DNA of 64,000 bases from IMG/VR virus record IMGVR_UViG_3300035501_001058. One strand, 5' to 3'. Within the stretch, counting starts at the first letter, position 1; every line of letters begins with the position of its first letter. This document shows, in pieces, positions 15,350-44,202 of the stretch. A program made the position numbers and the translations under genes. The DNA is from an uncultured virus (IMG/VR IMGVR_UViG_3300035501_001058). Its lineage: Duplodnaviria; Heunggongvirae; Uroviricota; Caudoviricetes. The notes beneath the pieces are model-generated. The model made no database searches, was not told where the DNA came from, and saw only the letters and a list, made by a program, of their open reading frames with translations.

Positions 15350-15399
15350 AATAAATAGATAGATAAGACCAGAGAGTGTAAAAGCTTTCTGGTCTTTTT
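15350..15399 (+). repeat. Direct repeat A1 containing a conserved-core terminator
   Basis: 48/50 identical to 18970-19019. Confidence 0.9.
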
Positions 15400-15913
15400 A
15401 GGTGAAAGAATAAATATCAAGTGTCCTAGCATAAGGTAGAGCATTATACTGTATGCATTGATAAGTAATACTCATAAGAAATTTAAACAGATTATTGCAG
15501 ATGGTCATGTACTTTTCTAGAGATTTATGCTTCTTAGCATACTCAAACACTACCTTTAGGCGATAGATATAGGTAGGTTCTGGATGTTCGTTATGCAAGA
15601 TGAATGTATCTTTCAGGCATTTAGTGCAATCAAGAAATCTCATTTCAGAGTTTTCTTTAAGAGAACCAATAGAATTTATTGGGGCTAAAATAAATTGTAC
15701 TGTGCTGGATAATTTATTGCATAATTGCTTATTATAATTTCGCATAGGATTATTCTCTGTGTAGCTACTAAGGTAATTCAGTGTGTTGAGATTTAGGTAA
15801 TAGCAGATTACTTCTTCTTTATTGCAGTAGTTTTTTGCTAAGAGCGTTGTAAAAAAGTCCTCTTCTTTACTATACAGATCTTTTATTTTATCTTTATCTT
15901 TATCTGTTAGCAT
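15398..15913 (-). CDS. Hypothetical protein
   Basis: 171-aa ORF with GAAAGGA RBS and no competing plus-strand ORF. Confidence 0.75.
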   Translation of the reverse strand: MLTDKDKDKIKDLYSKEEDFFTTLLAKNYCNKEEVICYYLNLNTLNYLSSYTENNPMRNYNKQLCNKLSSTVQFILAPINSIGSLKENSEMRFLDCTKCLKDTFILHNEHPEPTYIYRLKVVFEYAKKHKSLEKYMTICNNLFKFLMSITYQCIQYNALPYARTLDIYSFT

Positions 15914-16064
15914 GGTATCATTCCTTTCATCATAGTTTATAGGTGATTTGCTAGAATCACCTATAAACTATATAACATAAAAATTTTAAATTGTCAATCA
16001 ATAAAGAAATAATTATAGAATAATCAGAATTTAAAAACAATTGTCAAGAAAGGAAATTAAAACA

Positions 16065-16352
16065 ATGGAAATTAACAAAATGAACAGAAATGATTTAATC
16101 AAAATGATTAAAAAACACCCACACAGAGTTATGCATCTCGATAAGCAGGATGCTGAGATATGCAAAGTAGCTTTGGATAGCAACTTTAGAGTTTTGTGTG
16201 TTATTAGAGAGCAGACAGAAGAATTGTGTCTTTATGCTGTGCGAAAGAATTGGGAAGCAATTCAGTACGTTAGAGAACAAACACCTGCTATAATACAGGA
16301 AGCGTTAAAGCAGTCTAGTAATGCAAGCTACTATGTAGATGCAACAGCATAA
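16065..16352 (+). CDS. DUF4116-like helical repeat protein
   Basis: Repeats of QT.E.C..A...N..A..Y. Confidence 0.65.
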   Translation: MEINKMNRNDLIKMIKKHPHRVMHLDKQDAEICKVALDSNFRVLCVIREQTEELCLYAVRKNWEAIQYVREQTPAIIQEALKQSSNASYYVDATA

Positions 16353-16355
16353 AAT

Positions 16356-16390
16356 AGGACCAGAGAGTATAAGAGCTCTCTGGTCTTTTT
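16356..16390 (+). terminator. Conserved-core hairpin, copy A2 (probably bidirectional)
   Basis: GACCAGAG-AGTATAAGAGCT-CTCTGGTC between convergent genes. Confidence 0.8.
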
Positions 16391-16395
16391 AGGGT

Positions 16396-16893
16396 TTAAT
16401 TACTACGGGTAATGCAAGGGTAAGCATAATAATTAAGGTCGACAACTCTTATTTCTTTGCTATAACCCAAGCGTGCACTATTTCTAGTAGTAACATTATA
16501 AAGTACAGACAGAAACAGACAGATGGTTTGTAACTTAGTAATTTCAGCTATGAGCTGCATGTTGTTTGTTTTGTATCTTAAGTTAACTAGACTAGTTTCA
16601 ATTTCATTTAATTTCTTGGGACAGAAATTAATATCTTTGTAGTAATAAGCATTAAATCCTTTTCTAAGTGATGTTGCTCTGTCGGACTTACTGTAGCAAT
16701 AATGAGTCTCTGTGTTTTTAAACAGTTCAGTGTTTAGTAGATAAGCGCAAGGCGAAGCAACAGCACTCCACTCATTAGAGTTATTCTGGATATTCTGATT
16801 ATACTGAATGTTGAGTAAGTAACCTTTTATGTATGCTATGTTAAAATATTCGGATAATAATTTATAGTAGTATGTAGTGATTGTATTTTCCAT
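16396..16893 (-). CDS. Hypothetical protein
   Basis: ORF with GAGGTG RBS before ATG 16893; upstream TTGAAT...TGtTATACT on the minus strand. Confidence 0.7.
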   Translation of the reverse strand: MENTITTYYYKLLSEYFNIAYIKGYLLNIQYNQNIQNNSNEWSAVASPCAYLLNTELFKNTETHYCYSKSDRATSLRKGFNAYYYKDINFCPKKLNEIETSLVNLRYKTNNMQLIAEITKLQTICLFLSVLYNVTTRNSARLGYSKEIRVVDLNYYAYPCITRSN

Positions 16894-16996
16894 TAGGTTC
16901 ACCTCATTTGTTGATTGATTATAATGAGTATAACAGAATTGAGTAATAATTCAATGAATTTTATGAAAAAATCATTGAATTGGATGAGTGGAAATT

Positions 16997-17031
16997 AGGA
17001 CCAGAGAGTGTAAAAGCTTTCTGGTCTTTTT
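16997..17031 (+). terminator. Conserved-core hairpin, copy A3
   Basis: GACCAGAG-AGTGTAAAAGCT-TTCTGGTC then T run. Confidence 0.8.
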
Positions 17032-17213: not shown

Positions 17214-18974
17214 ATGGATTGGAGTAGTAGAAGTGTGACTAAAGAGTTAAGAGTAGATAGATACAGAATTAGTGATATAATAATTCGCTATATCGATGAT
17301 GAATTTTTTGTTAACAGAAGATACCAAAGAAAGTTAGTTTGGAGTCTTGATGAAAAACGTCTATTAATTGATTCTATTTTGAGGCAGATACCTTTACCGG
17401 CAATAATGTTAGTTGGCTTTAAAGTGCCTGTAGATAATGGTACTAAAGAGATTCTAGAAATTGTAGATGGTTTACAACGTCTAAATGCTATTATAGAGTT
17501 TGTTATGGGAAAATACGGAGTTGAATATCAGGGAAAGATATGTTATTTTGACCCATTAACTTTTAATGAGACATTTCAATTATGCCAAGATGGAAAAATT
17601 GCAAAGCAGGAATTGACATTACCAAAAGAGATTTGTCGAGATTTCATTAATTATGAGTTACCTGCTATTATTACAGGACAAGATGATAAAGCAATAGAGA
17701 CTATCTTTAGTAGAATTAATTCAACAGGAAGAAAGATCTCTCCACAGGATTTAAGGCAATCAAAAGCAATTGGTGAATTTCCTGATTTAGTACGTCGTAT
17801 AGCTAGCAGAGTTAGAGGTGATTACACATACGATAATAGAGTATGTCTAAGTGATGTCCCTAAGATTAGTATAGGTTCAAGTAAATACGGTTATGGCATT
17901 GATGTGAGTACTGTATTTTGGAGAAAGCATGATCTTGTTACAGAACGTAATCTTAAAGATTCTAAGGATGAAGAAATAATAGAATCTTTATTAGCTTCAA
18001 CATTATTAGGAAATAAGTTCAAAAAGAGTAAAATTTTTCTGGATGATTTATACGATAGAGAAACAGAACTAGGCAGATGTATAGAACAGGAAGTAGCTAA
18101 TGTCGGAAAAGAAAAACTGGAGAACAATTTTGCAAATGTTTTTAATACAATTGATGCTATTTTTACTGAATCTAACACTGATTTTTCTACACTGATGTTT
18201 GAGTCCAAAAGAATTAGTAATAAAGATGAATGCTTTAAGATAGTATTTAGAGCATTTTATAAACTTATGTCAGAGGGATACGTAGTAACAGATTATTGTA
18301 CTGTAGCATCAGAATTAAAAAAAGCTAGAAGTATTTTTGATAGATTTATTACAAAAGACAGAGTTAATTTTAGTGAAGCAGAAGATACAATAGTTAGTTT
18401 ATACAAAATTCTGAAACCATCGTTTTCTAAAATGATTAGCAGAAGTGTAAGTGATCTTGAAAAAGAGATTGATAAACGATTAAGTTACTCAAAAATAGAA
18501 AGTCAACTGACAGAATTTAAGATAGGCGTTTCCATACATAGTAGCAACAAGATTTGTTCTCAGTGCATACATAAAATAGCTAAAACTCTTGTAGCAATGG
18601 CTAATATAAGTAATGCTAAAGAATTAGGTATGGTAATAGTTGGTATAGCTGATAGTAATGAAGCTTATAAAGATTGGAAAGCTAATTATAATGGTACTGC
18701 TGATATTATAAGTAATCATTATGTAACAGGAATAGAAGATGAAGCCAAAAAGCTTACTGGTTCAACAGATAACCTATACCGTCAGATTAGACAGTGTATT
18801 GATAAGGAACCTATAACTGATAAATTAAAAAATTATGTGCTGGAGACTTTCGAGGTAATAAATTATCATGATAAAGAGCTACTGATTTTCTATAGTAAGA
18901 ATGTAGATGAGATTAGTTTATACGATGGGGAAAAATATGTAAGGCACGCAAATGAAACTGTATTAGTAAAATAA
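17214..18974 (+). CDS. DUF262 (GmrS/ParB-like) domain fused to a C-terminal Schlafen/AlbA_2 domain; putative defence protein
   Basis: YQRKLVW, LIDSIL, IVDGLQRL and IFSRINSTG (DUF262); ESQLTEFK, VAMAN, GMVIVGIAD and YVR (Schlafen/AlbA_2). Confidence 0.85.
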   Translation: MDWSSRSVTKELRVDRYRISDIIIRYIDDEFFVNRRYQRKLVWSLDEKRLLIDSILRQIPLPAIMLVGFKVPVDNGTKEILEIVDGLQRLNAIIEFVMGKYGVEYQGKICYFDPLTFNETFQLCQDGKIAKQELTLPKEICRDFINYELPAIITGQDDKAIETIFSRINSTGRKISPQDLRQSKAIGEFPDLVRRIASRVRGDYTYDNRVCLSDVPKISIGSSKYGYGIDVSTVFWRKHDLVTERNLKDSKDEEIIESLLASTLLGNKFKKSKIFLDDLYDRETELGRCIEQEVANVGKEKLENNFANVFNTIDAIFTESNTDFSTLMFESKRISNKDECFKIVFRAFYKLMSEGYVVTDYCTVASELKKARSIFDRFITKDRVNFSEAEDTIVSLYKILKPSFSKMISRSVSDLEKEIDKRLSYSKIESQLTEFKIGVSIHSSNKICSQCIHKIAKTLVAMANISNAKELGMVIVGIADSNEAYKDWKANYNGTADIISNHYVTGIEDEAKKLTGSTDNLYRQIRQCIDKEPITDKLKNYVLETFEVINYHDKELLIFYSKNVDEISLYDGEKYVRHANETVLVK

Positions 18975-19019
18975 ATAGATAGACAAGACCAGAGAGTATA
19001 AAAGCTTTCTGGTCTTTTT
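18970..19019 (+). repeat. Direct repeat A4 containing a conserved-core terminator
   Basis: 48/50 identical to 15350-15399. Confidence 0.9.
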
Positions 19020-32688: not shown

Positions 32689-32709
32689 TTAATATTAATT
32701 AAAATTCAC

Positions 32710-32745: not shown

Positions 32746-32837
32746 GCTATGGCGATAGAGAGAAAGGAGGTTAAAAATGGAAGGGGATTAAATTATTTTT
32801 TGTAACAAATAACATAGTTTAGGAAAGGATGGTTTTA

Positions 32838-35800
32838 ATGTTAAGAATTAAGAAAATAGCAACTAAATTGATTGCTAGTATGCTTACAGTAGTTATGCTC
32901 ATAACCACACCTGTAAGTACAACTATGGATTTAAGTTTTGGCTCTAATGTAGATACTGTTGAGGCAGCAACAACGGATTATAGTGGTACAATACCTTGTT
33001 CCGAAGGTTCATTATCGTGGAAGTTTACAGCTTCCACGGGTGTATTGTCATTTAGTGGAACGGGTACACCGTCATTGACTAATGCAGCATATTCTACCGC
33101 ATGGTCTAGTATTTATACAGATGCTGGGTGGGGTAATTACTTAAATGAAGTTACTTCTATTGATACATCAGGTGCAACTATTAAATTGGTAGCTCAGAAT
33201 GGTATGTATATGTTTAATAATTTTACGCACGTTACTTCAATAGATGTAAGTGGTATCGACACTAGTAAAGCTACTAATTTAAGTAGCATGTTTCAAAATT
33301 GTCTGTATTTAACAGAGATTAAAGGGTTAACAAATTTTAACACATCTAAAGTTGGTTGGATGACAAAAATGTTTTATGGCTGCCCTATGCTTTCAACAAT
33401 TGATGTAAGTAGCTTTGACACTTCTAATGTGTATGAGATGGATTATATGTTTTCTAAAACTGGTATAACAGATATAAAACTAATTAGTGCCTTTAATTGG
33501 GATAATGTTACTAATTGTTCATATATGTTTCAGGGGTGCAATAGCATAAATGGTGGTGTTGATTTTAAAGCTAATTTACCAAATGTTACGGATATGGATG
33601 GAATGTTTTCACAATGTGCACAGATTTCTATAATATGGTTTAATATTACTGCCCCTAAGCTAAATAGTTTAAGAAATTGTTTTTCCGGATGTGTAGGGTT
33701 AGCGACTGGTGTAATAACCATTAATACAGATTCTGATAGTGTAGATTATTATGCATTATTTTATGGAGATAGTGAATTAAGTGCAGTTGGTTTTACAGGT
33801 AATGTAGACATGACTGATTCAACTTATGTATATTATGGATGTTCAAATCTAGGTACTGTTAATGTAAATTCTAATATTGAAAAGGTTATAATGCCTACAT
33901 ATAGTAGATTTAATAGTTTAGGTTATTCTGGTTCAACAGCATGGATATGTAGTTCAGATAATTTAGTTTATTCTGCTGGAGCTATAGCACAAGCAAGTAA
34001 GTCAACTATGCCATACTTCGTGCCAATAGCGCCTCAGGTTACTTTTAATGTGTATGGTTTGGACAAGACTACCTGTACAAAAGTTGTTTATTATCAGAAT
34101 AAAGGATGCCTTGTAGATTCATCAAAGGCAGCAACAAGTGGTAACTTTACCTCTACAGTTATAGATTTACCTGCAACTCCGACGGGATACACTTTGAATG
34201 GTTACTATGAAGATTCAAGTTACACCAAGGAAAATACTTATGGTTTAACAACAAAAGGTACAATTATTCCTAGTAGTTTTGTAACTTCAACAAGTGCTTA
34301 CACAGATGGTATAGATATTTATGCTAAATATACACCAATAGAGTATAAAATCACATATAAGTTGGATGGAGGTACTAACAATAGTGCTAACCCTAGTACC
34401 TATACCATAGAAGACCACTATACTCTTGCAGAACCAACAAAAGAGGGGTATACATTTGCAGGTTGGTATGGAGACTCTTCTTTTACAACTAAGTTTGTAA
34501 ATACTACATATGGTAGTTTAGTTGTATATGCAAAATGGGAAAAGGATGCTTGTATTCATACTACGACAACAGTTAAGAATGCAGTAACGGCTACATGTGG
34601 CACAGCAGGTTACACAGGTGACACATACTGTTCAGATTGTGGAGAATTAGTAAGTTCAGGCTCGACCATTAATGCTACAGGAAATCATACATGGAATTCA
34701 GGAGTAGTTACTACAGCAGCAACTTGTAAAGCTACAGGTGTTAAGACTTACACATGTTCAGTATGTGGTACAACAAAGACAGAAGCAATCGCAAAGTTAA
34801 CAACTCATACATGGAATTCAGGAGTAGTTACTACAGCAGCTACTTGTGCAAAAGCAGGTATAAAAACCTATACATGTACAGTATGTGGTGAAACAAAGAC
34901 TGAAACAATTGCTAAGACAACAGAACACACCTTAAAGCAGACATCAATAGACAAAGAAGCAACATGTTCGACAACAGGTAAAGCTACTTACACATGTACA
35001 GTGTGTGGTACTACTCAGACATCAACAATTGCTATAGACTCAAGTAATCATGATTGGGTATTAAAAGAGACTATTACTGAAGCAACATGTTCAACAACAG
35101 GTGTAGGCTATTATGTATGCTCTTATTGTGGTAAGTCTAAGAAAGATGAAATTGCTGAAGATTCTACTAATCACAATTGGGAATTAAATAAAACTGTTGA
35201 GGAAGCTACTTGTAAAACTGAAGGAACAGGAATATATGTATGTTCTTATTGTGGTAAGTCTAAGAAAGATGTGATTGCTAAAGATTCATCTAAACATAAC
35301 TGGGAATTAGATTACACTGTTGAAGAAGCTACATGTATTTCAGCAGGTACAGGAATTTATGTATGTTCTGTATGTGGCGAAGATAAAGAAGGCTCTATTG
35401 ATAAACTTAGCCATACAGCAAAGAAGGAATATTCACAAGTTGCTACATGTTCTCAGCAGGGTAAGTACACTACAACATGTTCTGTATGTGGTACTTGGAT
35501 TAACTCCGGAACAGAGGTTAAGAATAAAAATAATCATGTAAACACTGCTATAGAAAATACAGTAGAAGCTACATGTACTACTAGTGGATACACAGGAGAT
35601 ACAGTATGCCAGGATTGTGGAACTGTAATATCAGAGGGTAGTGTAGTAGATGCAACTGGACATACATGGGATTCAGGTATAGTTAAAACTCAGGCAACAA
35701 CTACTTCAACAGGTATTAAGTTATATACCTGTAAGACTTGTGGTGAGACTAAGGAGACTGTTATTCCAAAGTTAAGTTCTACTGAAACAACAGAAAAGAC

Positions 35801-36668
35801 TACTGAAACAACAGAAAAGTCAACTGAAGAAACAACAGAAAAGACTACTGAGAAGGTAACAACTGAAGAAACAACAGAAAAGACTACTGAGAAATCAACT
35901 GAAGAAACCACAGAAAAGTCTACCGAGAAGTCAACAGAGGCTTCAACGGAGAAGTCAACAGAAAAAGTAACTGAAGAGGCAACAGAGGCTTCAACAGAAA
36001 ATACTACAGAAAAAGCTACTGAATCTAGTACAGAAACATTAACTGAAGCTGATAAAGAAATATCAACTGAGAAGACTACTGAAAAGGTAATTTCAGAAAA
36101 AGATACCAACAAAGGTACAACAAGTACAAAGAAGACTCAGAAGATTACAGGTGTTAAGTCTAAGTACACTAAAGTTTATGGTAGTAAAGCATTTACCTTA
36201 AAAGCTAAATCAAATGGCAACGGGGTAATTACTTATAAATCCTCAAATAAGAAAGTTCTTACTGTTAACAAAGTAGGAAAAGTAACAATCAAGGGTACAG
36301 GAAAAGCTACTATAACAATAAAAGCTAGTGTTACTTCAACTTACAAAGCTACTTCTAAGAAGATAACAGTAATTGTAAAACCTAAGAAAGAAAAGATTAG
36401 TAAAGTATCCTCTACTAAGGGTAAATTAAGTATTTCTTGGAAGAAGGATAAAAAGGTTAGTGGTTATCAGGTAGTGGTTGCTACAAATAAGAAGTTTACT
36501 AAAAATGTAAGCAAATACACAGTAAAGTCAAGTAAGAAAGTTAAATTAACTATATTAAAATTAGCCTCTGGTAAAACATACTATGTCAAGATCAGAGGTT
36601 ACAAAACTATAAACGGTAAAAAGGTTTATGGTAAATACAGTAAAGTTAAAAAAGTTACAATTAAATAA
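32838..36668 (+). CDS. Large surface protein: BspA/DUF285-type LRR, InlB B-type repeat, CxxC repeats, T/E/K linker, Ig-like and FN3 domains
   Basis: FDTSNV..M..MF repeats; PTKEGYTFAGWY; about 11 ATC...G..Y.C..CG repeats; TTEK repeats; YKSSNKKV.TV and SGYQV...YYVKIR. Confidence 0.88.
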   Translation: MLRIKKIATKLIASMLTVVMLITTPVSTTMDLSFGSNVDTVEAATTDYSGTIPCSEGSLSWKFTASTGVLSFSGTGTPSLTNAAYSTAWSSIYTDAGWGNYLNEVTSIDTSGATIKLVAQNGMYMFNNFTHVTSIDVSGIDTSKATNLSSMFQNCLYLTEIKGLTNFNTSKVGWMTKMFYGCPMLSTIDVSSFDTSNVYEMDYMFSKTGITDIKLISAFNWDNVTNCSYMFQGCNSINGGVDFKANLPNVTDMDGMFSQCAQISIIWFNITAPKLNSLRNCFSGCVGLATGVITINTDSDSVDYYALFYGDSELSAVGFTGNVDMTDSTYVYYGCSNLGTVNVNSNIEKVIMPTYSRFNSLGYSGSTAWICSSDNLVYSAGAIAQASKSTMPYFVPIAPQVTFNVYGLDKTTCTKVVYYQNKGCLVDSSKAATSGNFTSTVIDLPATPTGYTLNGYYEDSSYTKENTYGLTTKGTIIPSSFVTSTSAYTDGIDIYAKYTPIEYKITYKLDGGTNNSANPSTYTIEDHYTLAEPTKEGYTFAGWYGDSSFTTKFVNTTYGSLVVYAKWEKDACIHTTTTVKNAVTATCGTAGYTGDTYCSDCGELVSSGSTINATGNHTWNSGVVTTAATCKATGVKTYTCSVCGTTKTEAIAKLTTHTWNSGVVTTAATCAKAGIKTYTCTVCGETKTETIAKTTEHTLKQTSIDKEATCSTTGKATYTCTVCGTTQTSTIAIDSSNHDWVLKETITEATCSTTGVGYYVCSYCGKSKKDEIAEDSTNHNWELNKTVEEATCKTEGTGIYVCSYCGKSKKDVIAKDSSKHNWELDYTVEEATCISAGTGIYVCSVCGEDKEGSIDKLSHTAKKEYSQVATCSQQGKYTTTCSVCGTWINSGTEVKNKNNHVNTAIENTVEATCTTSGYTGDTVCQDCGTVISEGSVVDATGHTWDSGIVKTQATTTSTGIKLYTCKTCGETKETVIPKLSSTETTEKTTETTEKSTEETTEKTTEKVTTEETTEKTTEKSTEETTEKSTEKSTEASTEKSTEKVTEEATEASTENTTEKATESSTETLTEADKEISTEKTTEKVISEKDTNKGTTSTKKTQKITGVKSKYTKVYGSKAFTLKAKSNGNGVITYKSSNKKVLTVNKVGKVTIKGTGKATITIKASVTSTYKATSKKITVIVKPKKEKISKVSSTKGKLSISWKKDKKVSGYQVVVATNKKFTKNVSKYTVKSSKKVKLTILKLASGKTYYVKIRGYKTINGKKVYGKYSKVKKVTIK
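35780..36095 (+). repeat. Low-complexity tandem repeats encoding the T/E/K/S linker
   Basis: Repeated ACAGAAAAG/ACTGAAGAA units (TTEK, STEE). Confidence 0.8.
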
Positions 36669-36709
36669 AACAATTAGCAGGCCTCTGTAGAAATACAGAG
36701 GTTTGTTTT

Positions 36710-37588
36710 ATGGAGAAAAATATGAAAAGGAAATTACTTATAGTTTTGAGCATAATTATTATATTGATAAATGCTCAAGGAAGGTACATGATTTCAGAGG
36801 CAGCAGATAATTACACAGAGTTAAGGTATGATCAAACTAACTTAACTAAAGGCAAGTATGAAAAAAGATGTAGTATGAAATGGAAAATAGAAGTGTACTA
36901 CGATGATCAATCTTTGGAGGCTTTTACTCCAACTAAGAAAGAATTTAGCCAAGCTGCACAATTGTGGAAAAGGTTTTGCAGTTTAAAATCTAATCAAACT
37001 TTACATCTTAACTCAAAAAGGGATTATAAAAACTTATCACATCTTATGGGTATAATAAATGCAAAATACTTAGCATACATAGGACTAGTTTATGCTGGAG
37101 GTGAGAGCGACGGTATAGTTACTATTAGCGTTAAAGGAAAAAATGTACAAAAAGCAATTAAGCAGAATAATAAATTTAAAAAGAAATGTGAAGCTGTAGT
37201 TCAAAGTTTAGGTATAAACAAGAAAACAACAGAGCATGATGCAGCATTACTAATAAATAATTACCTTATAGATAGAATAGAATATGAAGAGAATACCATT
37301 GATGATTATAAAAAGTATGAAGATTTTGTTGCAATTTATACAGGAAAAGGGATTTGTGAGGATTATGCAAGAGCTTTTTATTTTCTCACTAAAACATGTG
37401 GAATTAAATGTGGCTTAATCTATGACAATGTAATTTCAGGTGGGCATGCCTACAATGTTGTTAACATAGGAAGAAGAAATTTCTACATAGATGTCACTTG
37501 GAGTGATTCTGTCAATAATAATTCTTACTTTATGGTAAGTAAGAATTATATTTTAAGAGAACATACTATTTCTATTTTATATTGGTAA
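36710..37588 (+). CDS. Secreted transglutaminase-like domain protein
   Basis: GICEDYARAF, HAYN and YIDVTW give the Cys-His-Asp triad; signal peptide. Confidence 0.85.
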   Translation: MEKNMKRKLLIVLSIIIILINAQGRYMISEAADNYTELRYDQTNLTKGKYEKRCSMKWKIEVYYDDQSLEAFTPTKKEFSQAAQLWKRFCSLKSNQTLHLNSKRDYKNLSHLMGIINAKYLAYIGLVYAGGESDGIVTISVKGKNVQKAIKQNNKFKKKCEAVVQSLGINKKTTEHDAALLINNYLIDRIEYEENTIDDYKKYEDFVAIYTGKGICEDYARAFYFLTKTCGIKCGLIYDNVISGGHAYNVVNIGRRNFYIDVTWSDSVNNNSYFMVSKNYILREHTISILYW

Positions 37589-37602
37589 AGAAAGGAGATA
37601 AT

Positions 37603-37821
37603 ATGGAGGATTTAAAATCTTTTAATGGCAACAGCGATGTTGCAAGAAAAATGGCAGCACAGATGAGCTATTGTAAGGAGAACCACGCACCTTATTTTGT
37701 ACCTAGTAGTGGTACTTGCTATAATTGCGGAATACAGATCTATGACAATTATGATTTAGAATACTGTGGTAAAAATTTAATAACTGGGTGTCCCCGTTGT
37801 CATATAAGCTACTGTGAATAA
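37603..37821 (+). CDS. Small zinc-finger protein
   Basis: CYNC and ITGCPRCH.SYC. Confidence 0.75.
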   Translation: MEDLKSFNGNSDVARKMAAQMSYCKENHAPYFVPSSGTCYNCGIQIYDNYDLEYCGKNLITGCPRCHISYCE

Positions 37822-37859
37822 TTTAGGGAAATCTAGTGTAAAAGCTAGGTTTCTTTTTT
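37822..37859 (+). repeat. Direct repeat B1 (conserved-core terminator)
   Basis: 38/38 identical to 39027-39064. Confidence 0.92.
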
Positions 37860-37887
37860 TAAAAGTTTATGCTATAGTGAAGTAGAG

Positions 37888-38721
37888 GTGATAGATGTGA
37901 ATAGCATGGATTGTTTCAGTAACAGAAAAGTTTTTAATACAAATAATTTAATAGAATTGCAAACAAACACTTCATCAAAAGGTAATCAAAAGAAATGGTA
38001 TGATCCTATTAATAAAATCTATGTTAAAGAGAGATTTTTATATCAAGATGTTTTTTGGAAAGATGATTTGGTTGAGATTATTGGCTCTAATATAGGTAAT
38101 CAATTAATGTTGAAAAATACCATAGTAATAAATCAAGAGTTAGCTGAAATTGTAGGTGAGGGTTATCATAGATTTGGTGTTTGCTCTAGGGATTTTAATA
38201 AAGATGGTTTTCGTTTTATTTCATTTGCTAAATTATCAAATATTGTAGGTGAAGAATTTCCTGAACATATTAGTTTAGAAGGCATGTGGGAGTTTATTTT
38301 AGACTTTTATGAAAGACACACTAAATTAGATTTACGGGAATATTTTATAGCTATGAGCATAATAGATTTTATAGTAGGAAATGAAGACAGACATTTTGGT
38401 AATTTTGGATGTTTAACTAATGATAAAGAATACAAAGTAGCTCCATTATTCGATTTCGGTTTAGGATTATTTGAACATGATAGAAGATATTTAGACATTC
38501 CTTTTATAATAGCAAAAAGAAAAATGTCATTTTTACCTTTCACAGTAGATGAAAAAAAAGTAATTGAATATCTTTCTAAAAGATATAATGTAGAGGATTT
38601 CCTGCCAAAATTTTTTGATTGTACTGATTTGGTTTTTCCGTCGGCAAATGCAATAGAATATTTTAAATATGCATCCAGTTATCTTGGGATAGAATTGAGG
38701 AATTTAAATGATAAGATATAA
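37888..38721 (+). CDS. HipA-like (HipA_C/CtkA-type) kinase toxin
   Basis: SSKGNQKKW; DFIVGNEDRHFGNFG; APLFDFG. Confidence 0.85.
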   Translation: MIDVNSMDCFSNRKVFNTNNLIELQTNTSSKGNQKKWYDPINKIYVKERFLYQDVFWKDDLVEIIGSNIGNQLMLKNTIVINQELAEIVGEGYHRFGVCSRDFNKDGFRFISFAKLSNIVGEEFPEHISLEGMWEFILDFYERHTKLDLREYFIAMSIIDFIVGNEDRHFGNFGCLTNDKEYKVAPLFDFGLGLFEHDRRYLDIPFIIAKRKMSFLPFTVDEKKVIEYLSKRYNVEDFLPKFFDCTDLVFPSANAIEYFKYASSYLGIELRNLNDKI

Positions 38722-39025
38722 TGATGTTGGTGGTATTATTATGAAAAATGATACACCATTAGTGGAGTTTAAATATAGGCAAAGCAGATTAATTAAAGTC
38801 AAGCTACTTACTGATGTAAACAACTTGCCTATAGAATATAAAGGTGTACTTAATAAATATCGTGCTACAGATTTATTTCTGCGGGATAGAATTACACCAC
38901 CTACTAGGCAGTTCATTAATGAAGATTTAAAAAAAGTTGGAATAGCATACTATGATCCTGATGCTATGTTAAAATTGAATAAAGGTAGAAACATGGAAGA
39001 TCAATATTGGGTTGATATGAAATGA
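38708..39025 (+). CDS. Putative partner resembling the HipA N-terminal (HipS-like) subdomain
   Basis: FL.DRI.P..R...L...G...D.YW pattern; overlaps the kinase gene. Confidence 0.6.
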   Translation: MIRYNDVGGIIMKNDTPLVEFKYRQSRLIKVKLLTDVNNLPIEYKGVLNKYRATDLFLRDRITPPTRQFINEDLKKVGIAYYDPDAMLKLNKGRNMEDQYWVDMK

Positions 39026-39026
39026 C

Positions 39027-39064
39027 TTTAGGGAAATCTAGTGTAAAAGCTAGGTTTCTTTTTT
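39027..39064 (+). repeat. Direct repeat B2 (conserved-core terminator)
   Basis: 38/38 identical to 37822-37859. Confidence 0.92.
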
Positions 39065-39099
39065 ATGCGTAAATAAACATTAGGAAGGAGGCACATTCA

Positions 39100-39660
39100 A
39101 TGACAGGAAAAACGCATGTATTAGGTGGTATGACATTTGCATTAGGAGGATTTCTCTGTATGAAAGCTGGAGGAATGCTTATACCAGATGTTGCAGAACC
39201 ACTTCAGTTAGGTATTATAATGCCATATGCGATTTGGTCTAGCACTTTACCAGACCTAGATCAAGCAAAAGAGTCTGTAGCACAATCAAGTCCTATCAAT
39301 TTAGTAATTCAAAAGATATTCACCCTAGTAGGAGCTGGACATAGAAGTGTGAAATCTCATGTTATCCCAATGTTAATTAGTTTGGTATTATATCTTGCTA
39401 TAGGATTTGGCTATTTATTACATGGATTTAATGGGACTGAGATAACTATTATAGGTTTAATGACATTAGGTATATTCTTAGGACTACTTAGTCATTTCAT
39501 CTTAGATATCATGACAAGAAAAGGTATTAAAGTTGGAGGTATTATAGTACGAGTTGTTCCAGATACAGATTTATTTGGAACAGGGACACTATATGAAAAT
39601 ATAGTTAGGAAGTGCTTATACATAATTGTTTGCATTTTCATAGTATTTTTATTTTTATAG
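39100..39660 (+). CDS. YdjM-like membrane metal-dependent hydrolase
   Basis: MTGKTH, LPDLD, HR...H and SHFILD..T..GI. Confidence 0.85.
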   Translation: MTGKTHVLGGMTFALGGFLCMKAGGMLIPDVAEPLQLGIIMPYAIWSSTLPDLDQAKESVAQSSPINLVIQKIFTLVGAGHRSVKSHVIPMLISLVLYLAIGFGYLLHGFNGTEITIIGLMTLGIFLGLLSHFILDIMTRKGIKVGGIIVRVVPDTDLFGTGTLYENIVRKCLYIIVCIFIVFLFL

Positions 39661-39671
39661 GAGGATAAAAC

Positions 39672-39971
39672 ATGGGATTTATTCCAAAGTTGGTACAAAT
39701 ACAAATATTACAATATTTATACGATAACAAAAAGGATTTGATACTAAAATCGGTATCTATAGGTGATTTAGTAACAGCCTTTGAAACAGACGAAGGTTTA
39801 ATAACTTTTAATTATAATGTAGTAAGAGCAGGAATATATGAGCTGGTTGATGTAGGACTTATAGCTGATGGAGTAAAAGTAGGTAATACATATACTTATT
39901 ATATTACTGAGAATGGAAAGAAGTATTTGTCTTTAGCTACAGGTACAGCAAATAGAAAGGGGTCTAAATAA
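39672..39971 (+). CDS. Winged-helix DNA-binding protein (TubR-like candidate)
   Basis: L...GLI..G.K......YYITENG wHTH pattern; stop overlaps the start of the tubulin-like gene. Confidence 0.65.
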   Translation: MGFIPKLVQIQILQYLYDNKKDLILKSVSIGDLVTAFETDEGLITFNYNVVRAGIYELVDVGLIADGVKVGNTYTYYITENGKKYLSLATGTANRKGSK

Positions 39972-41077
39972 TGAATAATGATTTTGGGTTTTTGTGTGTT
40001 GGACAAGCTGCTGGAAATATAGGCAGCTTGTTTGAGGAATTAGGTTATAATGTTTTGTTTATAAACACCTCACAGGAGGATTTAGATTTATTAAAAGATG
40101 CAAAGCATAAGTATCATGTTGAAGGAGGAGAAGGATGTGCAAAAGATAGAGATAAAGCAAAATCCTTGCTTGCTAATGATGTAGATACACTTGTACAACT
40201 AGTAAGAGATAAATTACCGCAGAAAATGATTTTTGCAATTTTTGCAAGTGGTGGAGGAACAGGTTCCGGTTTATCTCCTTTTCTTCTTAGTATTTTAAAT
40301 GATGAATTTAATAATGATGAATATAATCCAGAAAAGAGATTTTCCGCTATAACTATATTACCAAGTGATACAGAGCCTCTACAGCCAGCAATTAATAGTT
40401 ACAATTGTTGCAAGGAGCTGTTAGATATTGAAGGCTTAGGTAGTATTTTCTTTCTAGATAATAATAGTAGACTTGATAGATTTGCTATAAATAAGGCTTT
40501 TGTTAAGGGCTTGCATACAATTCTTTCTATACCTGAGGAGCATAAAAGTACAAAAGGTAATGTTGATAAAGCAGAAATAAAGAAGGTTCTTTTTGAAACT
40601 TCAGGTATGGCTTCTTTTGTCGTAACGAAAAGAGAAAGAGGAAGCGCACCAGAATTGATAAATGCTATGAAAGATACTATTTTTGCACCAGTCGATACCA
40701 GCGGGTCTGTTTTATACTATGTATTTAGTACAACACAGGAAATAGACAAGCAGGCAATAATGACAGAGTTCGGTGAGCCATTAGATACATTTTCAACATA
40801 CAATGATAAAGAAAATATTATGCTGATGACAGGTATGCAACCACCATACAATAGAATGAATGGTATTGCTGCTAGGGTTAAAAACAAGACAAATAAAATG
40901 GAGAATACATTAGATAATTTGTTAGATAATAAGCTTAGTGAAAGTATTGGTATTTCTACAAAGCCAAGAAGAAGAAAGAATGTCGTAGAGAAAATTGATA
41001 GTAGTACAGGTGAAGTAGTAAAGAAGAGCTCACCAAAACCAAATGCTAGAGATTTACTACAGCAGTATAGACGATAG
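39971..41077 (+). CDS. Tubulin/FtsZ-family GTPase (TubZ/PhuZ-like)
   Basis: GQAAGNI, INTS..D, GCAKDR, GGGTGSG signature, LDN and NVD.AE; basic C-terminal tail. Confidence 0.9.
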   Translation: MNNDFGFLCVGQAAGNIGSLFEELGYNVLFINTSQEDLDLLKDAKHKYHVEGGEGCAKDRDKAKSLLANDVDTLVQLVRDKLPQKMIFAIFASGGGTGSGLSPFLLSILNDEFNNDEYNPEKRFSAITILPSDTEPLQPAINSYNCCKELLDIEGLGSIFFLDNNSRLDRFAINKAFVKGLHTILSIPEEHKSTKGNVDKAEIKKVLFETSGMASFVVTKRERGSAPELINAMKDTIFAPVDTSGSVLYYVFSTTQEIDKQAIMTEFGEPLDTFSTYNDKENIMLMTGMQPPYNRMNGIAARVKNKTNKMENTLDNLLDNKLSESIGISTKPRRRKNVVEKIDSSTGEVVKKSSPKPNARDLLQQYRR

Positions 41078-41079
41078 AG

Positions 41080-41475
41080 GTGCTTATAATGGATGATACG
41101 GAATTTAAAAAACTACAGGATGGTTTACATGAGTATAACAAAGCTTGTATTGTTGTAAGAATTGGTGCAATAATTTTATTTGCAGTTATAGGTTACTGTA
41201 TTTGGATAATTGCTCAAAAGTCTGTTGATGCAAGCGATTTTACAGTTAAAAATCTATTTGTTGATTTCATACTGTGTGGAATTTTTATGATACTTGAGTT
41301 AATTTTTGCTATAGTTAATTTTATCAAGGCTTACTTTATAAATACATTAAAAGCAAATAGAGTAAAGGTATATAATGGAAAAAATCCTGAGAATTTGCTT
41401 CTTTTACCAGAAATTCATTCAGGGCAAGTACATTATGTTAATGGACCAGGTTTCAAGAAATATTTTATTTATTAA
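41080..41475 (+). CDS. Membrane protein (two TM helices)
   Basis: Two hydrophobic segments. Confidence 0.7.
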   Translation: MLIMDDTEFKKLQDGLHEYNKACIVVRIGAIILFAVIGYCIWIIAQKSVDASDFTVKNLFVDFILCGIFMILELIFAIVNFIKAYFINTLKANRVKVYNGKNPENLLLLPEIHSGQVHYVNGPGFKKYFIY

Positions 41476-41484
41476 AGAGGTATT

Positions 41485-42099
41485 ATGGAAGATAAAGATA
41501 CATTAAAATTATTAAAACTTATTGCTAGCGACAACTATAGATTGTCAGAGCAGATAGTAAATGGCTATATAGAGGTCACGCATAAGAAATGTGGTCATAA
41601 GTTTAGTTGTAGTATAAAGGATGCATCTTTATTTGGTTTTCATTGTAAACGCTGTGAAGACGCTAAGAAAAATATACTACTGAACAATTACCAGGAGATA
41701 GAGTCTATGGATTTATATAATAAGTGTATAGAACACTTACCAGATGATTATGTAATTTATGGTGATACTAATAGTCTTGAATCAGAGATAAGAGTTAGCT
41801 GGCCAGGTGGTGCAGATTTTAACATTGTGATTGGTGACTTACTGAGTAATAGGAATTTGCCAGATTGTTTATTACATAGAGATAGTGCTTTAAGCACTAG
41901 CATTCAACTTCAGATACTTGATAAACTTATAGATGATAAATTGGAAATACTAGATGATTTTAAAGAATTAACTGATGAAATTCGTATTAAGGATAATAAA
42001 AACGGAACTGTTACAAAAGAGACTGTTGCAGAATTAGTAGCAAATTTGCGAGAAAAAATTGATAAGAATAACGAGCAAAAAATCCAGCAATTCTTCTAA
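41485..42099 (+). CDS. Zinc-ribbon-containing protein
   Basis: HKKCGHKF...CKRC followed by degenerate repeats. Confidence 0.7.
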   Translation: MEDKDTLKLLKLIASDNYRLSEQIVNGYIEVTHKKCGHKFSCSIKDASLFGFHCKRCEDAKKNILLNNYQEIESMDLYNKCIEHLPDDYVIYGDTNSLESEIRVSWPGGADFNIVIGDLLSNRNLPDCLLHRDSALSTSIQLQILDKLIDDKLEILDDFKELTDEIRIKDNKNGTVTKETVAELVANLREKIDKNNEQKIQQFF

Positions 42100-42271
42100 T
42101 AACACATTAGAAGTCACAACAGTCTCAAGAGATAGTGTGTGCGATACTACTGTATCAATAGTTTCATATAAGGGGATTCAAAAAATAAGCACACAAACAG
42201 ATAGTTTTCGGGATATAAACGATATGAATAATCTTCACGATAGTGTCATAGCTAAGATATTAAAATCATTT

Positions 42272-42307
42272 AAGGGAGATAACTTTTAAAAGAGTTATCT
42301 CTTTTTT
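42272..42307 (+). terminator. Intrinsic terminator
   Basis: AAGGGAGATAACT...AGTTATCTCTTTTTT. Confidence 0.7.
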
Positions 42308-42371
42308 GTAAAAATCTCTAATCAAGTTGTAATCGGACTCGATTACAATAATTTTTAGAGGAGGTTAATCC

Positions 42372-44054
42372 ATGAGAGATTACCATGAAATTTTTTACAA
42401 GTGGAGACATGCATCTAACGAAGAATTAATGCAGTCTGATAATGCAGGAGCTAGAGTAGAACTTGCATTAAGAACAAATGAACCATCACTTAAAGCAGCA
42501 GCTATAGAGCAGATGGATTATGATTCCTACAACATTATAAGTGCAATTGAGCTACTGAAAGGAGACGACTTTAAAGAGAAAGTAATGTTATACGAATCAA
42601 TGCTTTTACCAGCTATAACTTTTAATTTGCAATTAGATCTAAAGTCTGAATTAGATGTTTTGCAATATGCGGTAAAGACATTATTACCTGTAGCAAATGG
42701 TTACTTAGAAAGCGTTATAAAACATTTAAACTTGCTAAGTACAAAAGTTCTTGTTAGAAATTCAAAAAATTATTTAAATCTTTTGAGATTACATTACACT
42801 GATTTCCAGATTTGCTACATAAATTACATGTGGTTTAAAGAAAAGGCAAGTGAAAGTAATTTACGTAAGCTTCAAAATAATTTACTTTATGTTTTATTTT
42901 GTCAAGAAAGTGAATTCACTAATGCGGAAAAAAATCTGATATTGGAAGTACTCTCAGAACATCCTAGATTTTATAGTGCATTAAAATGGTCAAGCTCATT
43001 CACAGAATTAGACGTCATTAACGATGAAAATTGGAAATGGTTATATTCACTGTGTTCTGAAGGAAAGCTGTCATATAGTTGTATTGCAGTAAATCCTATA
43101 CTTACATTTGAGGCACCAAGATTCAGATGTTTAGATTTCACAGAAAAACTTGAAGCAATAGATAGAAACTTGCCATGTGTAAATAACAAAATACAGCTTC
43201 ACACAATGTTAGCTGACTTAGAGTTTGAGGAATATCTAGATAATTTTGATAGAAAGTTGCCACTGGATACTATAACAGCTGCAATCAAGTTAGAAATTCT
43301 TACATTAGATGACTTAGATGAGAGTCAAAGAGAGTCTTACTTACAAGGAATAAAAACACATGAAGCTTTTGAATATCTTGTTACACATGAAGAATATCAG
43401 TCATTAAAAATAATACATGACACCAGTAGCTATTACTATTATGGTTTAAAGGATTCTGAAATGCGTAAGAGTTTTCTTAATGACGAAGAGTCAAGGCAAT
43501 TAATCACAATGATTCTGGATGCAGCTTATAAGGAAGATGATGGTAAGTTTTTAAGTTATCTTCTTACAATTTTAAGTGATCAGGATTGTACTAGATTATA
43601 TAGTAATGAATTATTACAAGAGATATTAGATAAATTACAAGAGATACCTAATCTAACTATAGGAAAGTACTACTTAACTAATATGTTTAATAATATACTA
43701 GGAGAGGAAGAAGCAAATATAAGATTAGCTAAGCTAGCAGAGCAGGCTGAACAAGAGAGATTAAAACGACTTGAGGAAAAAGCAGCTAAAGATATTAAGG
43801 AATTACATGACAATTTTGATAATACTATATCATTTGCAAATTTATGGAATAATTACAAGGATTTGCCTAGTTGGAAATATGAGGATTCTTTAAAATTAAA
43901 AGTATTAAAAGATACTCTTTATGCAAAATTAGCAATTTGGAAACCAGATGAATTCAGTGCGAAACTCATTGGTATTTTGATGAGCGAAGACGCACTCTCT
44001 TATGATGAATTCAAAGAGATAGTAATTAATTTACAGGAGGTTTGTAATGAATAA
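42372..44054 (+). CDS. Hypothetical helical protein
   Basis: 560-aa ORF, GAGGAGG RBS. Confidence 0.8.
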   Translation: MRDYHEIFYKWRHASNEELMQSDNAGARVELALRTNEPSLKAAAIEQMDYDSYNIISAIELLKGDDFKEKVMLYESMLLPAITFNLQLDLKSELDVLQYAVKTLLPVANGYLESVIKHLNLLSTKVLVRNSKNYLNLLRLHYTDFQICYINYMWFKEKASESNLRKLQNNLLYVLFCQESEFTNAEKNLILEVLSEHPRFYSALKWSSSFTELDVINDENWKWLYSLCSEGKLSYSCIAVNPILTFEAPRFRCLDFTEKLEAIDRNLPCVNNKIQLHTMLADLEFEEYLDNFDRKLPLDTITAAIKLEILTLDDLDESQRESYLQGIKTHEAFEYLVTHEEYQSLKIIHDTSSYYYYGLKDSEMRKSFLNDEESRQLITMILDAAYKEDDGKFLSYLLTILSDQDCTRLYSNELLQEILDKLQEIPNLTIGKYYLTNMFNNILGEEEANIRLAKLAEQAEQERLKRLEEKAAKDIKELHDNFDNTISFANLWNNYKDLPSWKYEDSLKLKVLKDTLYAKLAIWKPDEFSAKLIGILMSEDALSYDEFKEIVINLQEVCNE

Positions 44055-44184: not shown

Positions 44185-44202
44185 ATAGAATGGAGGGATA
44201 CT

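Follow-up and report, generated by a model that had tools for sequence, protein, structure and literature searches.

A HipA-like kinase module bracketed by a duplicated putative terminator hairpin in an uncultured TubZ-bearing element

In the 64,000-nt stretch of DNA analysed here (the window), part of a large phage- or plasmid-like element, the genes of a HipA-like kinase and its partner protein are enclosed by two identical copies of a 38-bp sequence that folds into a terminator-type hairpin. With moderate confidence, we read this bracket as the footprint of homologous rather than site-specific recombination at repeated terminators, as with promoter-early stem-loops (PeSLs) and morons, and not as an integron.

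The direct repeat and the module between its copies

The features of the site are as follows.

37582..37821, plus strand: upstream gene for a 79-aa Cys-rich protein (phrog_20040), its stop codon abutting the left repeat
37822..37859, plus strand: left repeat copy, with a hairpin at 37825-37856 (13-bp stem, GUAAAA loop) and then a T run
37870..37878, plus strand: extended -10-like motif TGCTATAGT, a consensus match
37888..38721, plus strand: kinase gene, short HipA-homologous Ser/Thr type (HipT/HipJ/CtkA-like), Pfam HipA_C
38708..39025, plus strand: partner gene, 105 aa, HipS-like (fold of HipA N-subdomain-1) by predicted structure
39027..39064, plus strand: right repeat copy, with a hairpin at 39030-39061
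39100..39660, plus strand: downstream gene for a YdjM-family membrane protein, the first gene of a block collinear with relatives

The perfect 38-bp direct repeat claimed in a preliminary description of this DNA was confirmed at 37822-37859 and 39027-39064, both copies lying on the plus strand with 0 mismatches. It is the longest exact direct repeat anywhere in the window, where a search allowing up to 3 mismatches revealed no third copy, and none of 100 shuffled windows contained two matches to the 38-mer. The bases bordering the two copies differ on either side, so that the repeat cannot be extended. The copies begin 0–1 nt past stop codons (at 37821 and 39025), are spaced 1205 bp from copy to copy and enclose 1167 bp of DNA. 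Their lower stems are fully identical, which argues for recent common descent rather than convergence and supports the bracketing terminator hairpin as a recent duplicate.

According to the preliminary description, only an extended -10 element, the kinase and its partner lie between the copies. Both genes were borne out as the sole family-supported ORFs of the interval; the -10 amounts to a consensus match. The position of TGCTATAGT was correct, outside the 38-bp repeat and after the left copy only, but its significance did not hold up, as the frequency of TGNTATAGT was at chance level (8 occurrences in the window versus 5.7 expected, with at least 8 in 19 of 100 shuffles). Sigma-70-like sites in the window numbered 79 versus 78.9 expected. 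Judging from its sequence, the -10-like motif is a candidate module promoter, and the module may have a promoter of its own.

The longest ORF of the kinase comprises 277 aa; public gene calls place the start at 37897, for 274 aa, or at 37906, for 271 aa. It matched Pfam HipA_C at 7.6e-8, above the family cut-off. Furthermore, residues N165, E166, D167, R168, H169, N172 and D189 were invariant across 36 homologues and, in alignments with CtkA and HipT(Lp), fell on the catalytic loops of these kinases; we take them to include the catalytic loop and the Mg-binding Asp. The partner gene overlaps the kinase gene by 14 nt. By sequence, the partner found nothing in Pfam, PHROGs, PADLOC or NCBIfam, and a word-based homologue search returned the protein itself alone. 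Pfam gave no significant match for any of the 54 partner-family members, the partner profile reached E-values of at least 0.59 against PDB sequences, and Foldseek with the partner model yielded no E-value of 0.001 or below. The structure model (pLDDT 95.4) was aligned with VIA-align, where the top seven entries were all HipS or HipA N-domains (Z 7.9 to 3.9, rmsd 3.2–4.1, 90–95 of 105 residues aligned), followed by an entry with Z 2.8. Moreover, the partner profile matched the N-terminus of 20 fused kinases. As modelled, the 105-aa partner is HipS-like.

We infer that kinase and partner form a toxin-antitoxin pair, in which, by analogy, the partner most likely neutralises or regulates the kinase. 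A HTH or HipB-type gene was not present between the repeats, neither of the two family-supported ORFs being of that type. In PADLOC, the module matched only a candidate defence family, and the label 'defence gene' is tentative for this toxin-antitoxin-like module. Its composition is like that of its surroundings (GC z –1.6 for the kinase, –0.6 for the partner); a foreign base composition was thus rejected.

The hairpin family and other bracketed sites

Folding of a repeat copy as RNA gave 13 stem pairs closed by a 6-nt loop, at –13.8 kcal/mol (z –3.68); none of 200 shuffles folded as well. The hairpin starts 4–5 nt past the stop codons and has only 3 G-C pairs in its stem. A consensus terminator scan reported sister hairpins at 32710 and 31368 and missed both 38-bp copies because the T run is partly paired into the lower stem. 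From these sequence features, we assign the 38-bp hairpin as a putative intrinsic terminator; no Rfam family matched it. As a separate observation, the element encodes its own RNA polymerase.

The window holds a family of ~14 hairpins with fixed geometry (13-bp stem, 6-nt loop). The top pairs (A-U/G-C/U-G) and the GUAAAA loop are near-invariant, in the window and in relatives alike, and the lower stems vary from site to site. The core motif gave 6 matches versus 0.13 expected, all on the plus strand and all intergenic. Across 14 sequences, compensating changes occurred at 11 of 13 stem pairs and 98.9% of cells were paired (0 of 500 shuffles), a pairing that is partly by construction, the 14 family hairpins having been chosen with a hairpin finder. 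Same-type copies among these 14 are contiguous, with one group of four (15367, 16358, 16999, 18987) and a second group of two (37825, 39030); 409 of 200,000 label permutations matched the contiguity of both groups.

The group of four comprises near-identical hairpins that bracket three accessory modules at 15.3–19.0 kb:

15367..15399, plus strand: copy 1 of the second hairpin set, with the same 33 bp as copy 3
15398..16902, both strands: three small ORFs (171 aa, minus; 103 aa with DUF4116, plus; 168 aa, minus), bracketed by copies 1–3
16358..16385, plus strand: copy 2, with 3 mismatches in 28 nt, between convergent genes
16999..17031, plus strand: copy 3, identical to copy 1
17214..18974, plus strand: gene lying between copies 3 and 4, with a 586-aa product (GmrSD_N plus Schlafen/AlbA_2)
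18987..19019, plus strand: copy 4, with 1 mismatch, in the loop

The flanks of this set are mosaic: copies 1 and 4 have ~15 nt in common upstream, and copies 1 and 3 ~10 nt downstream. The small ORFs at 15398..16902 show the highest GC3 of the window (z +2.05 to +2.25), and two of the three lie on the minus strand, which is otherwise almost unused in the window. The content between same-type neighbouring hairpins is accessory-type, namely the hipJS-like pair, the GmrSD_N/Schlafen protein and the three ORFs.

We also surveyed brackets around 93 kinase modules from other loci and the window, obtaining a value for 65. The bracketing repeat measured 38 bp in the window versus 10–13 bp in the other 64, which argues that the repeat belongs to the replicon. 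The twelve other modules with the kinase-then-partner order had unrelated flanking hairpins or none. On both counts, a module-borne repeat, that is, a kinase cassette with its own ends, was rejected.

A TubZ search of metagenome contigs revealed relatives at only 12 loci (63–75% identity). Thirteen genes rightward from YdjM (YdjM, TubR-like, TubZ and on to 49173) are collinear between the window and these relatives, with no collinearity left of YdjM; the right repeat is the edge of synteny. In the corresponding slot, relatives carry a HipA-like gene of the fused type, whose identity to that of the window is only 23%, versus 66% for TubZ. Among themselves, the relatives are 92–97% identical across 8–10 kb right of an MNT-HEPN site. 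Here, a ~55-bp hairpin-bearing intergenic element is duplicated in seven of the eight loci covering the site and brackets MNT-HEPN pairs. Two alternative bracketed pairs, in three and four loci respectively, have no mutual nucleotide homology, and in the eighth locus the element is single and stands behind a different gene. Cassettes thus swap at the duplicated ~55-bp element in relatives. This element differs in sequence from the 38-bp hairpin and does not occur in the window.

Origin of the bracket

The preliminary description had proposed a self-contained cassette that moves at terminator hairpins. The self-contained unit and the duplicated hairpin stood. Recurrence of the layout, both at 15.3–19.0 kb and with the ~55-bp element of the relatives, makes gain or loss at the hairpins plausible and, together with the survey that ties the repeat to the replicon, gives good indirect support for exchange there. 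On the reading that we favour, the 38-bp copies would derive from one intrinsic-terminator-type hairpin of the replicon's own terminator family, with transcription of the upstream unit ending at the left copy and that of the module at the right copy. The module itself would be small and complete, made up of a possible promoter, the short kinase and, translationally coupled to it, the HipS-like protein. One route of entry would be a crossover in which a hairpin carried by incoming DNA, be it a circle or the genome of a co-infecting sibling, recombined with the hairpin already present behind the Cys-rich gene; the other would be a double crossover bringing in the module together with both hairpins. 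The direct repeats would now permit loss of the module via recombination or slippage, leaving a single terminator between the two flanking genes and yielding a product of 1205 bp. Against this reading, 38 bp is short for efficient homologous recombination, the -10-like motif lies outside the repeat, the module's composition is not foreign, and this site showed no empty form, alternative occupant or circle in the distant relatives, reads and contig counts described below. In the case of the kinase module, the step from hairpin recombination to the present bracket is one we infer; given only two copies, a single insertion by any mechanism, with nothing more thereafter, fits equally well.

Such a one-off event might have taken place at a stalled hairpin, through illegitimate recombination or through template switching, the terminator being copied at the time or made uniform afterwards by gene conversion. 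If so, the bracket would be a scar rather than a working exchange site. We hold this to be possible, though on balance unlikely. It agrees with the presence of only two copies, with a module composition that already resembles the surroundings, with the lack of a recognised recombinase in the window, and with the fact that no empty site or circle was seen among distant relatives, 151-bp reads or contig counts. Megablast of 36000-41000 against phages and plasmids gave no match, the exact 38-mer was absent from viral contigs, and searches of viral contigs with TubZ and with the kinase alignment found nothing. TubZ was also compared with 401, 401 and 400 genomes, drawn in turn from the order, the family and the class of a genome labelled Lachnospiraceae; the best match had 45% identity, and the last two of these searches gave no TubZ match at E <= 1e-80. 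Two read runs (5–8% of sampled words) yielded only 151-bp records on 30000-46000, with neither a joint spanning the module nor a long piece within it, a result that weighs on neither side. Contigs recorded per protein numbered four each for kinase, partner, YdjM, TubZ and HNH, six for TubR and two plus one for the Cys-rich protein; these per-protein counts, in which contig sharing is not resolved, gave no hint of a module-less form among near-identical public contigs. A single event is at odds, however, with the independent recurrence of the layout at 15.3–19.0 kb, with four copies and mosaic flanks, and with the different cassettes that fill one bracket in relatives. Taken together, these two observations point to repeated use of such elements in the lineage.

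Another account invokes a dedicated recombinase of the tyrosine or serine type, whose gene would lie beyond the window and which would recognise the folded hairpin and excise or insert cassettes as circles. The preliminary description had called the shuffling integron-like, and this part of its proposal was not supported: the 64 kb yielded no recombinase, and the stems are perfectly paired and of terminator type, with lower stems that differ between sites. It had also stated that no transposase or integrase is adjacent; indeed, Pfam detected no integrase, resolvase or transposase in the 63 window ORFs (7 + 56 across the window, many of them without any family). Recombinases of any kind were not recognised in the window, only an SSB. 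The strikingly fixed hairpin geometry, with near-invariant top pairs and loop in window and relatives, and the small cassette-like units would suit such an enzyme, and the 64 kb examined belong to a larger replicon of probably ~191 kb. Recombination across sites with differing lower stems would, however, give mismatched hairpins, yet 98.9% of cells are paired. The T runs are likewise terminator-like, and the element at which cassettes swap in relatives has a different sequence. We therefore consider a recombinase of this kind improbable. Slightly more speculative still is the idea that the fixed-geometry hairpin, which is conserved in this lineage of large elements encoding TubZ and RNA polymerase, is not just a terminator but a dedicated exchange signal, a folded DNA or RNA read by an element-encoded enzyme such as one of the HNH nucleases, in an integrase-free but integron-like manner. 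If so, the element would possess a cassette system collecting toxin-antitoxin and defence genes.

Mis-joining of the module into the contig at a repeated terminator is scarcely credible: although the 38-bp repeat is longer than common assembly word sizes and one public 1227-bp contig carries an identical kinase (1227 = 1167 + 2 × 30, as expected for a segment of a k=31 graph that ends at the repeat), such a short contig would equally arise if the graph broke at a genuine repeat, stop codons abut the repeat at both junctions, which are clean, and the kinase, the partner and both flanking genes have the same longest public contig of 191,278 bp.

Relation to known systems

By analogy, the bracket most resembles the PeSL-mediated modular shuffling of T4-type phages. 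PeSLs are repeated intergenic motifs with a terminator stem-loop that flank non-essential genes of variable regions (Arbiol et al. 2010, PMC2839356; Comeau et al. 2014, PMC4122927), and shuffling involves no dedicated recombinase (PMC2839356; PMC4122927). Recombination deletes the gene between two copies, leaving one copy and a mini-circle, and can run in reverse to insert the gene; each PeSL is a composite of a sigma-70-like promoter and a stem-loop, conserved across ~100 bp (PMC2839356). Compared with PeSLs, the window likewise has a repeated intergenic stem-loop placed after genes, but repeats the 38-bp hairpin only, without a conserved promoter inside. Its hairpin family also differs in having a fixed geometry and a conserved loop, and it resides in an unrelated, TubZ-bearing element that is low in GC and Clostridia-like in affinity.

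Phage morons are promoter-gene-terminator units inserted between phage genes. The present module is similar to them as an autonomous unit with a terminator that sits inside an operon-like array and carries a host-interaction gene. In classical morons, however, a duplicated flanking terminator is not a defining feature, whereas both terminators are identical here. With integron cassettes, the module shares small single-function units, hairpin-forming repeats as ends and a proposed circular intermediate, but no IntI-type recombinase was found in the window, an array beside attI or Pc is absent, and the unit possibly has its own promoter. In addition, attC sites are imperfect hairpins with unpaired bases and conserved core sites, whereas the hairpin of the window is fully paired (13 of 13 stem pairs in the fold) and followed by a T run.

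A literature search listed no specific account of the same layout outside T4-type phages. If our favoured reading of recombination at repeated terminators is true, shuffling at repeated regulatory hairpins would not be confined to T4-type phages of Gram-negative hosts, from which it has been known to date, and would also work in an unrelated lineage of very large extrachromosomal elements from Clostridia-like bacteria of the gut or the environment. In these elements it would move mainly toxin-antitoxin and restriction-like genes (hipJS-like pair, MNT-HEPN pairs, GmrSD-like protein) and offer a simple, recombinase-free route to the turnover of defence and addiction genes. Identical neighbouring terminators would then be a practical marker for accessory cassettes in uncultivated giant elements.

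As for the module itself, hipJS and hipBST likewise combine a short HipA-homologous kinase without N-subdomain-1 and a separate ~100-aa protein of HipS fold (Gerdes et al. 2021, PMC8262856). Structures 7ab3, 8ezr and 7vkb served for comparison. The gene order of the module, kinase then HipS, matches that of hipJS (PMC8262856). Unlike hipBST, the module has no HipB-type HTH gene, is therefore bicistronic and in this respect resembles hipJS. It represents an added phage- or plasmid-borne case of split HipA organisation, with a HipS-like gene downstream of the kinase.

Kinase, partner and their bracket

The module and the repeat that encloses it comprise the following features:
37822-37859, + strand: left copy of the 38-bp repeat
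37888-38721: short kinase of the HipA_C type
38708-39025: 105-aa partner, overlapping the kinase gene by 14 nt
39027-39064, + strand: right copy of the 38-bp repeat

The kinase matched Pfam HipA_C (7.6e-8, above cut-off) and the PADLOC candidate family PDC-M03A (1.9e-15). A large protein collection yielded 72 homologues at E ≤ 1e-3, the best of which, besides the kinase itself, were 46–47% identical. The profile of 36 homologues matched the solved short kinases CtkA (2.7e-9) and Legionella HipT (3.4e-8) and, weakly, E. coli HipT (2e-3). Its alignment to the solved short kinases ran across the catalytic loop as far as the Asp behind it, and residues N165, E166, D167, R168, H169, N172 and D189, which presumably have the catalytic roles known from the HipA literature, were invariant among the 36 homologues.

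The partner had no match in Pfam, PHROGs, PADLOC or NCBIfam, and a word-based homologue search returned only the protein itself, but an exhaustive HMMER search recovered 76 relatives at E ≤ 1e-3. Its predicted structure, modelled from a 54-row alignment (53 relatives plus the partner), reached a pLDDT of 95.4 and a pTM of 0.85. Foldseek gave no significant E-value for the model; in VIA-align, each of the top seven rows was either HipS or a HipA N-terminal domain (7vkb_B, Z 7.9; 8ezr_A, 7.8; 7ab3_B, 7.2; 4pu4_A, 6.3; 3tpd, 5.5; 7czo, 5.1; 4pu5, 3.9), with 90–95 of 105 residues aligned at an rmsd of 3.2–4.1, and the following row had a Z of 2.8. We then located the partner profile relative to 93 kinase ORFs, which came from the window, 9 metagenome loci and 80 genome loci, the latter mainly of Lachnospiraceae and other Clostridia. 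It lay upstream in 53, was N-terminally fused in 20 and lay downstream in 13, including the window; it was not found at the other seven, several of which are at contig ends. The structural matches, with the domain architecture as independent support, indicate that the partner is a HipS-like protein, that is, the detached N-subdomain-1 of a HipA-type kinase. The order of kinase followed by HipS-like gene is that of hipJS, as set out by Gerdes et al. (PMC8262856), and the module contains no HipB-like HTH gene. By homology, it would pair a toxic kinase with a HipS-type protein that neutralises or regulates it, and is predicted to be a toxin–antitoxin of a known kind.

The perfect 38-bp duplication of a hairpin, reported in the preliminary description, was confirmed: TTTAGGGAAATCTAGTGTAAAAGCTAGGTTTCTTTTTT occurs exactly twice in the window, both times on the + strand and with 0 mismatches. 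There was no third copy in the window at ≤3 mismatches, and 0 of 100 shuffles gave two matches. The 38-mer is the longest exact direct repeat of the window, followed by coding repeats within the gene for a 1279-aa surface protein and by a 33-bp hairpin (15367/16999). Because the bases beside the two copies differ on the left and on the right, the repeat measures 38 bp and its period 1205 bp. The left copy begins immediately 3′ of the TAA of a 79-aa Cys-rich ORF, and the right copy one base 3′ of the TGA of the partner. As RNA, the 38-mer forms a stem of 13 pairs capped by the 6-nt loop GUAAAA (–13.8 kcal/mol, z –3.68; equally good folds in 0 of 200 shuffles), and a T run lies 3′ of the hairpin. 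Of the hairpins concerned, a simple terminator scan picked up the sisters at 32710 and 31368 and missed both 38-bp copies, since part of their T run is engaged in G-U/A-U pairs of the lower stem. The extended –10 claimed after the left hairpin is present as the –10-like motif TGCTATAGT, although its frequency is not above chance.

A public short-read assembly contains a 1227-bp contig with the identical kinase (protein P0150; window 37860-39026). Its length is that of the 1167-bp insert with 30 bases on either side (1167 + 2 × 30), which is what a k = 31 assembly graph broken at the 38-bp repeat would give, and we infer this origin. Assemblies of short reads are expected to fragment at this repeat, and linear and circular forms of the module look the same in such a segment.

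A hairpin design of the lineage

The core CTAGTGTAAAAGCTAG gave six matches in the window at ≤2 mismatches (0.13 expected), all on the + strand and all intergenic. In our own hairpin scan, the + strand had 41 T-tailed hairpins and the – strand 18. One design, with a stem of 10–13 pairs and a loop of 6 nt, is common to about 14 hairpins on the + strand; this count includes the copy at 16358, which the scan gave on the – strand only and which was further placed on the + strand. The loops were GTAAAA (eight), ATAAAA (two) and GTAACA, GTCAAA, ACAACA and ATAAGA (one each).
3459, 10922, 12122, 15365, 16358, 16997, 18985, 25921, 27266, 31368, 31528, 32710, 37825 and 39030, + strand: hairpins of the family

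The same design recurs in related elements, for example at 1202, 6877 and 17144 of L003, a metagenome locus. Of the 14 distinct hairpins that we aligned, 11 came from the window and three from L003. In this alignment 98.9% of cells were paired, 11 of 13 pairs showed two-sided, compensatory changes and 0 of 500 shuffles reached the covariation score, the pairing being partly by construction because a hairpin finder had selected the sequences; that the lengths of stem and loop and the loop sequence are constant does not follow from this selection. The loop and the three pairs next to it were near-constant. As the lower stems are free to vary within the family, the 38/38 identity of the bracketing copies implies their recent common descent. 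Rfam has no family for this hairpin. The lineage-wide, terminator-like design may be linked to the element's own RNA polymerase:
49882-58575: fused RNA polymerase beta-like and beta′-like protein, 2897 aa in a single ORF (Rpb2_6, 2.6e-58; Rpb1 domains 2–5)

Three different terminator-like hairpins stand in tandem at 31365-31553, inside a 490-bp gene-free stretch (31158 to 31645).

The longest exact repeat common to both flanks could be given for 65 of the 93 kinase modules, the other 28 having short flanks or no shared 10-mer. It was 38 bp in the window and 10–13 bp in the 64 others, which rules out the bracket as a property of the kinase module; at the 12 other modules with the kinase-then-partner order, neighbouring hairpins were unrelated or absent.

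The kinase site in relatives, and parallel brackets

A TubZ search of metagenome contigs gave 12 loci at 63–75% identity, hereafter the relatives. Nine of these span the region; in them 13 genes, beginning with YdjM and continuing to the right, were collinear with window 39100-49173, and no gene left of YdjM was common to window and relatives. Synteny is thus confined to YdjM and rightwards, and its edge coincides with the right repeat.
Window 39100-41077 and L003 9097-11107: conserved block of a YdjM-family membrane protein, a TubR-like winged-helix protein and TubZ

The corresponding slot of the relatives is occupied by a fused HipA-like gene of 399 aa, together with a Macro-domain gene and two small ORFs. 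A HipA-type kinase therefore lies just upstream of the YdjM/TubR/TubZ block in both lineages, as a split and permuted version in the window and as a fusion in the relatives. The kinases are only 23% identical, whereas TubZ is 66% identical, and the window kinase profile scored ~1e-8 on the relatives' kinases versus 1e-73 to 1e-86 on kinases from Lachnospiraceae genomes. These values argue that the HipA-type gene beside the partition genes was replaced, not inherited. Its position in both lineages would suit a role in plasmid addiction or in abortive-infection defence alike.

A second bracket within the window is formed by four copies of the GACCAGAGAGTGTAAAAGCTTTCTGGTC hairpin, at 15367 and 16999 (exact, 33 bp), 18987 (one mismatch) and 16358 (three mismatches), with no matches in shuffles. 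The copies separate three units:
Unit 1: 171-aa ORF (– strand) and 103-aa DUF4116 ORF
Unit 2: 168-aa ORF (– strand)
Unit 3: 586-aa GmrSD_N/Schlafen protein

The 171-aa and 168-aa ORFs of this region (15367-19019) are two of the very few minus-strand genes in the window, and together with the 103-aa ORF they have its top GC3 values (z +2.05 to +2.25). The hairpin copies have mosaic flanks, with ~15 nt upstream common to copies 1 and 4 and ~10 nt downstream common to copies 1 and 3. Identical or near-identical hairpin copies are always neighbours; both groups were contiguous in only 409 of 200,000 permutations of the 14 labels.

The relatives carry a ~55-bp hairpin-bearing element just upstream of an adhesin gene, at a site covered by eight loci:
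L003, 86-164 and 1217-1294: two copies
L006, 191-257 and 1176-1241: two copies
L012, 16-67 and 999-1050: two copies
L005, 983-1040: single copy

In L006, L009 and L012, two copies ~984 bp apart surround a nucleotidyltransferase and HEPN pair (Pfam 5e-11, 1.5e-7). L002, L003, L004 and L007 have a different such pair upstream of the adhesin gene (5e-9, 2e-6), where L003, L004 and L007 show both copies of the element at a distance of 1131 bp and L002, which begins within the module, shows only the right one. The two pairs share no nucleotide homology inside, whereas their flanks are 89–98% identical. In L005, the single element lies 3′ of another gene, which is unannotated. On the right-hand side of the site, identity among the relatives is 92–97%, with 97.4% over 9.7 kb between L005 and L012. 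The three states amount to replacement of cassettes at a duplicated intergenic element in closely related loci, which is the signature described for promoter-early stem-loops (PeSLs) of T4-type phages (PMC2839356). The ~55-bp element is absent from the window; the lineage thus uses more than one such sequence.

Proposed exchange at terminator hairpins, and the replicon

The best-supported explanation is that the replicon's own terminator hairpins would serve as short portable homologies at which accessory transcription units may enter, leave or swap by general recombination, the HipT/HipS-like pair being one such putative unit. This account fits the phage moron concept. Arbiol et al. (PMC2839356; see also Comeau et al., PMC4122927) showed the same exchange at PeSLs. 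The window differs in that it repeats the hairpin alone, with TGCTATAGT outside the repeat, in that the geometry of its hairpin is fixed and the loop conserved, and in that its replicon is unrelated to T4-type phages.

The proposal that the cassette was gained or lost at terminator hairpins is partly supported, by the parallel brackets in the window and its relatives. For the kinase site itself, a one-off insertion with duplication of the terminator is a serious rival. No empty site was found, nor anything close to the site, in phage, plasmid and viral-contig collections; the sequencing runs, comprising 151-bp records only, showed no joint across the module but carry no weight either way, and no close relative turned up in three additional genome samples. 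Cluster records listed four contigs each for kinase, partner, YdjM, TubZ and HNH, six for TubR and two plus one for the Cys-rich protein, numbers that neither hint at a module-less form nor disprove it. A dedicated recombination enzyme encoded elsewhere on the replicon is a less likely alternative; as the preliminary description stated, no transposase or integrase is adjacent, and no integrase, resolvase or transposase family was found among 63 ORFs of the window. The integron-like shuffling suggested there does not hold on the features examined: no recombinase was recognised in the window, and the stems are perfectly paired and terminator-like, with site-specific lower stems.

Almost all ORFs of the window lie on the + strand. 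It encodes SSB, an NAD-ligase-like protein, HNH nucleases, two giant surface proteins and the YdjM-family protein that precedes the TubR-like/TubZ pair, and its toxin–antitoxin or defence-type genes include AbiEii, two DUF3990 proteins, a nucleotidyltransferase and the GmrSD_N/Schlafen protein.
3516-6122, 8556-9331, 11379-11693 and 26038-26808: BlaI/PadR-like repressor, AbiEii, DUF3791 with DUF3990, second DUF3990, small nucleotidyltransferase
57-127 and 11092-11153: two tRNA genes (Rfam, 59.3 and 44 bits)

The same proteins occur on public contigs, the longest of 191,278 bp, and the nearest TubZ in the plasmid collection (~33% identity) is found on ~185–210-kb Clostridium plasmids. In our reading, the replicon is a large element of a Clostridia-like host, whether phage, phage-plasmid or plasmid. 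At 28790-30813, a tandem pair of paralogues (341 and 332 aa) shares exact repeats of 23–24 bp, ~1 kb apart, both at the gene starts and inside.
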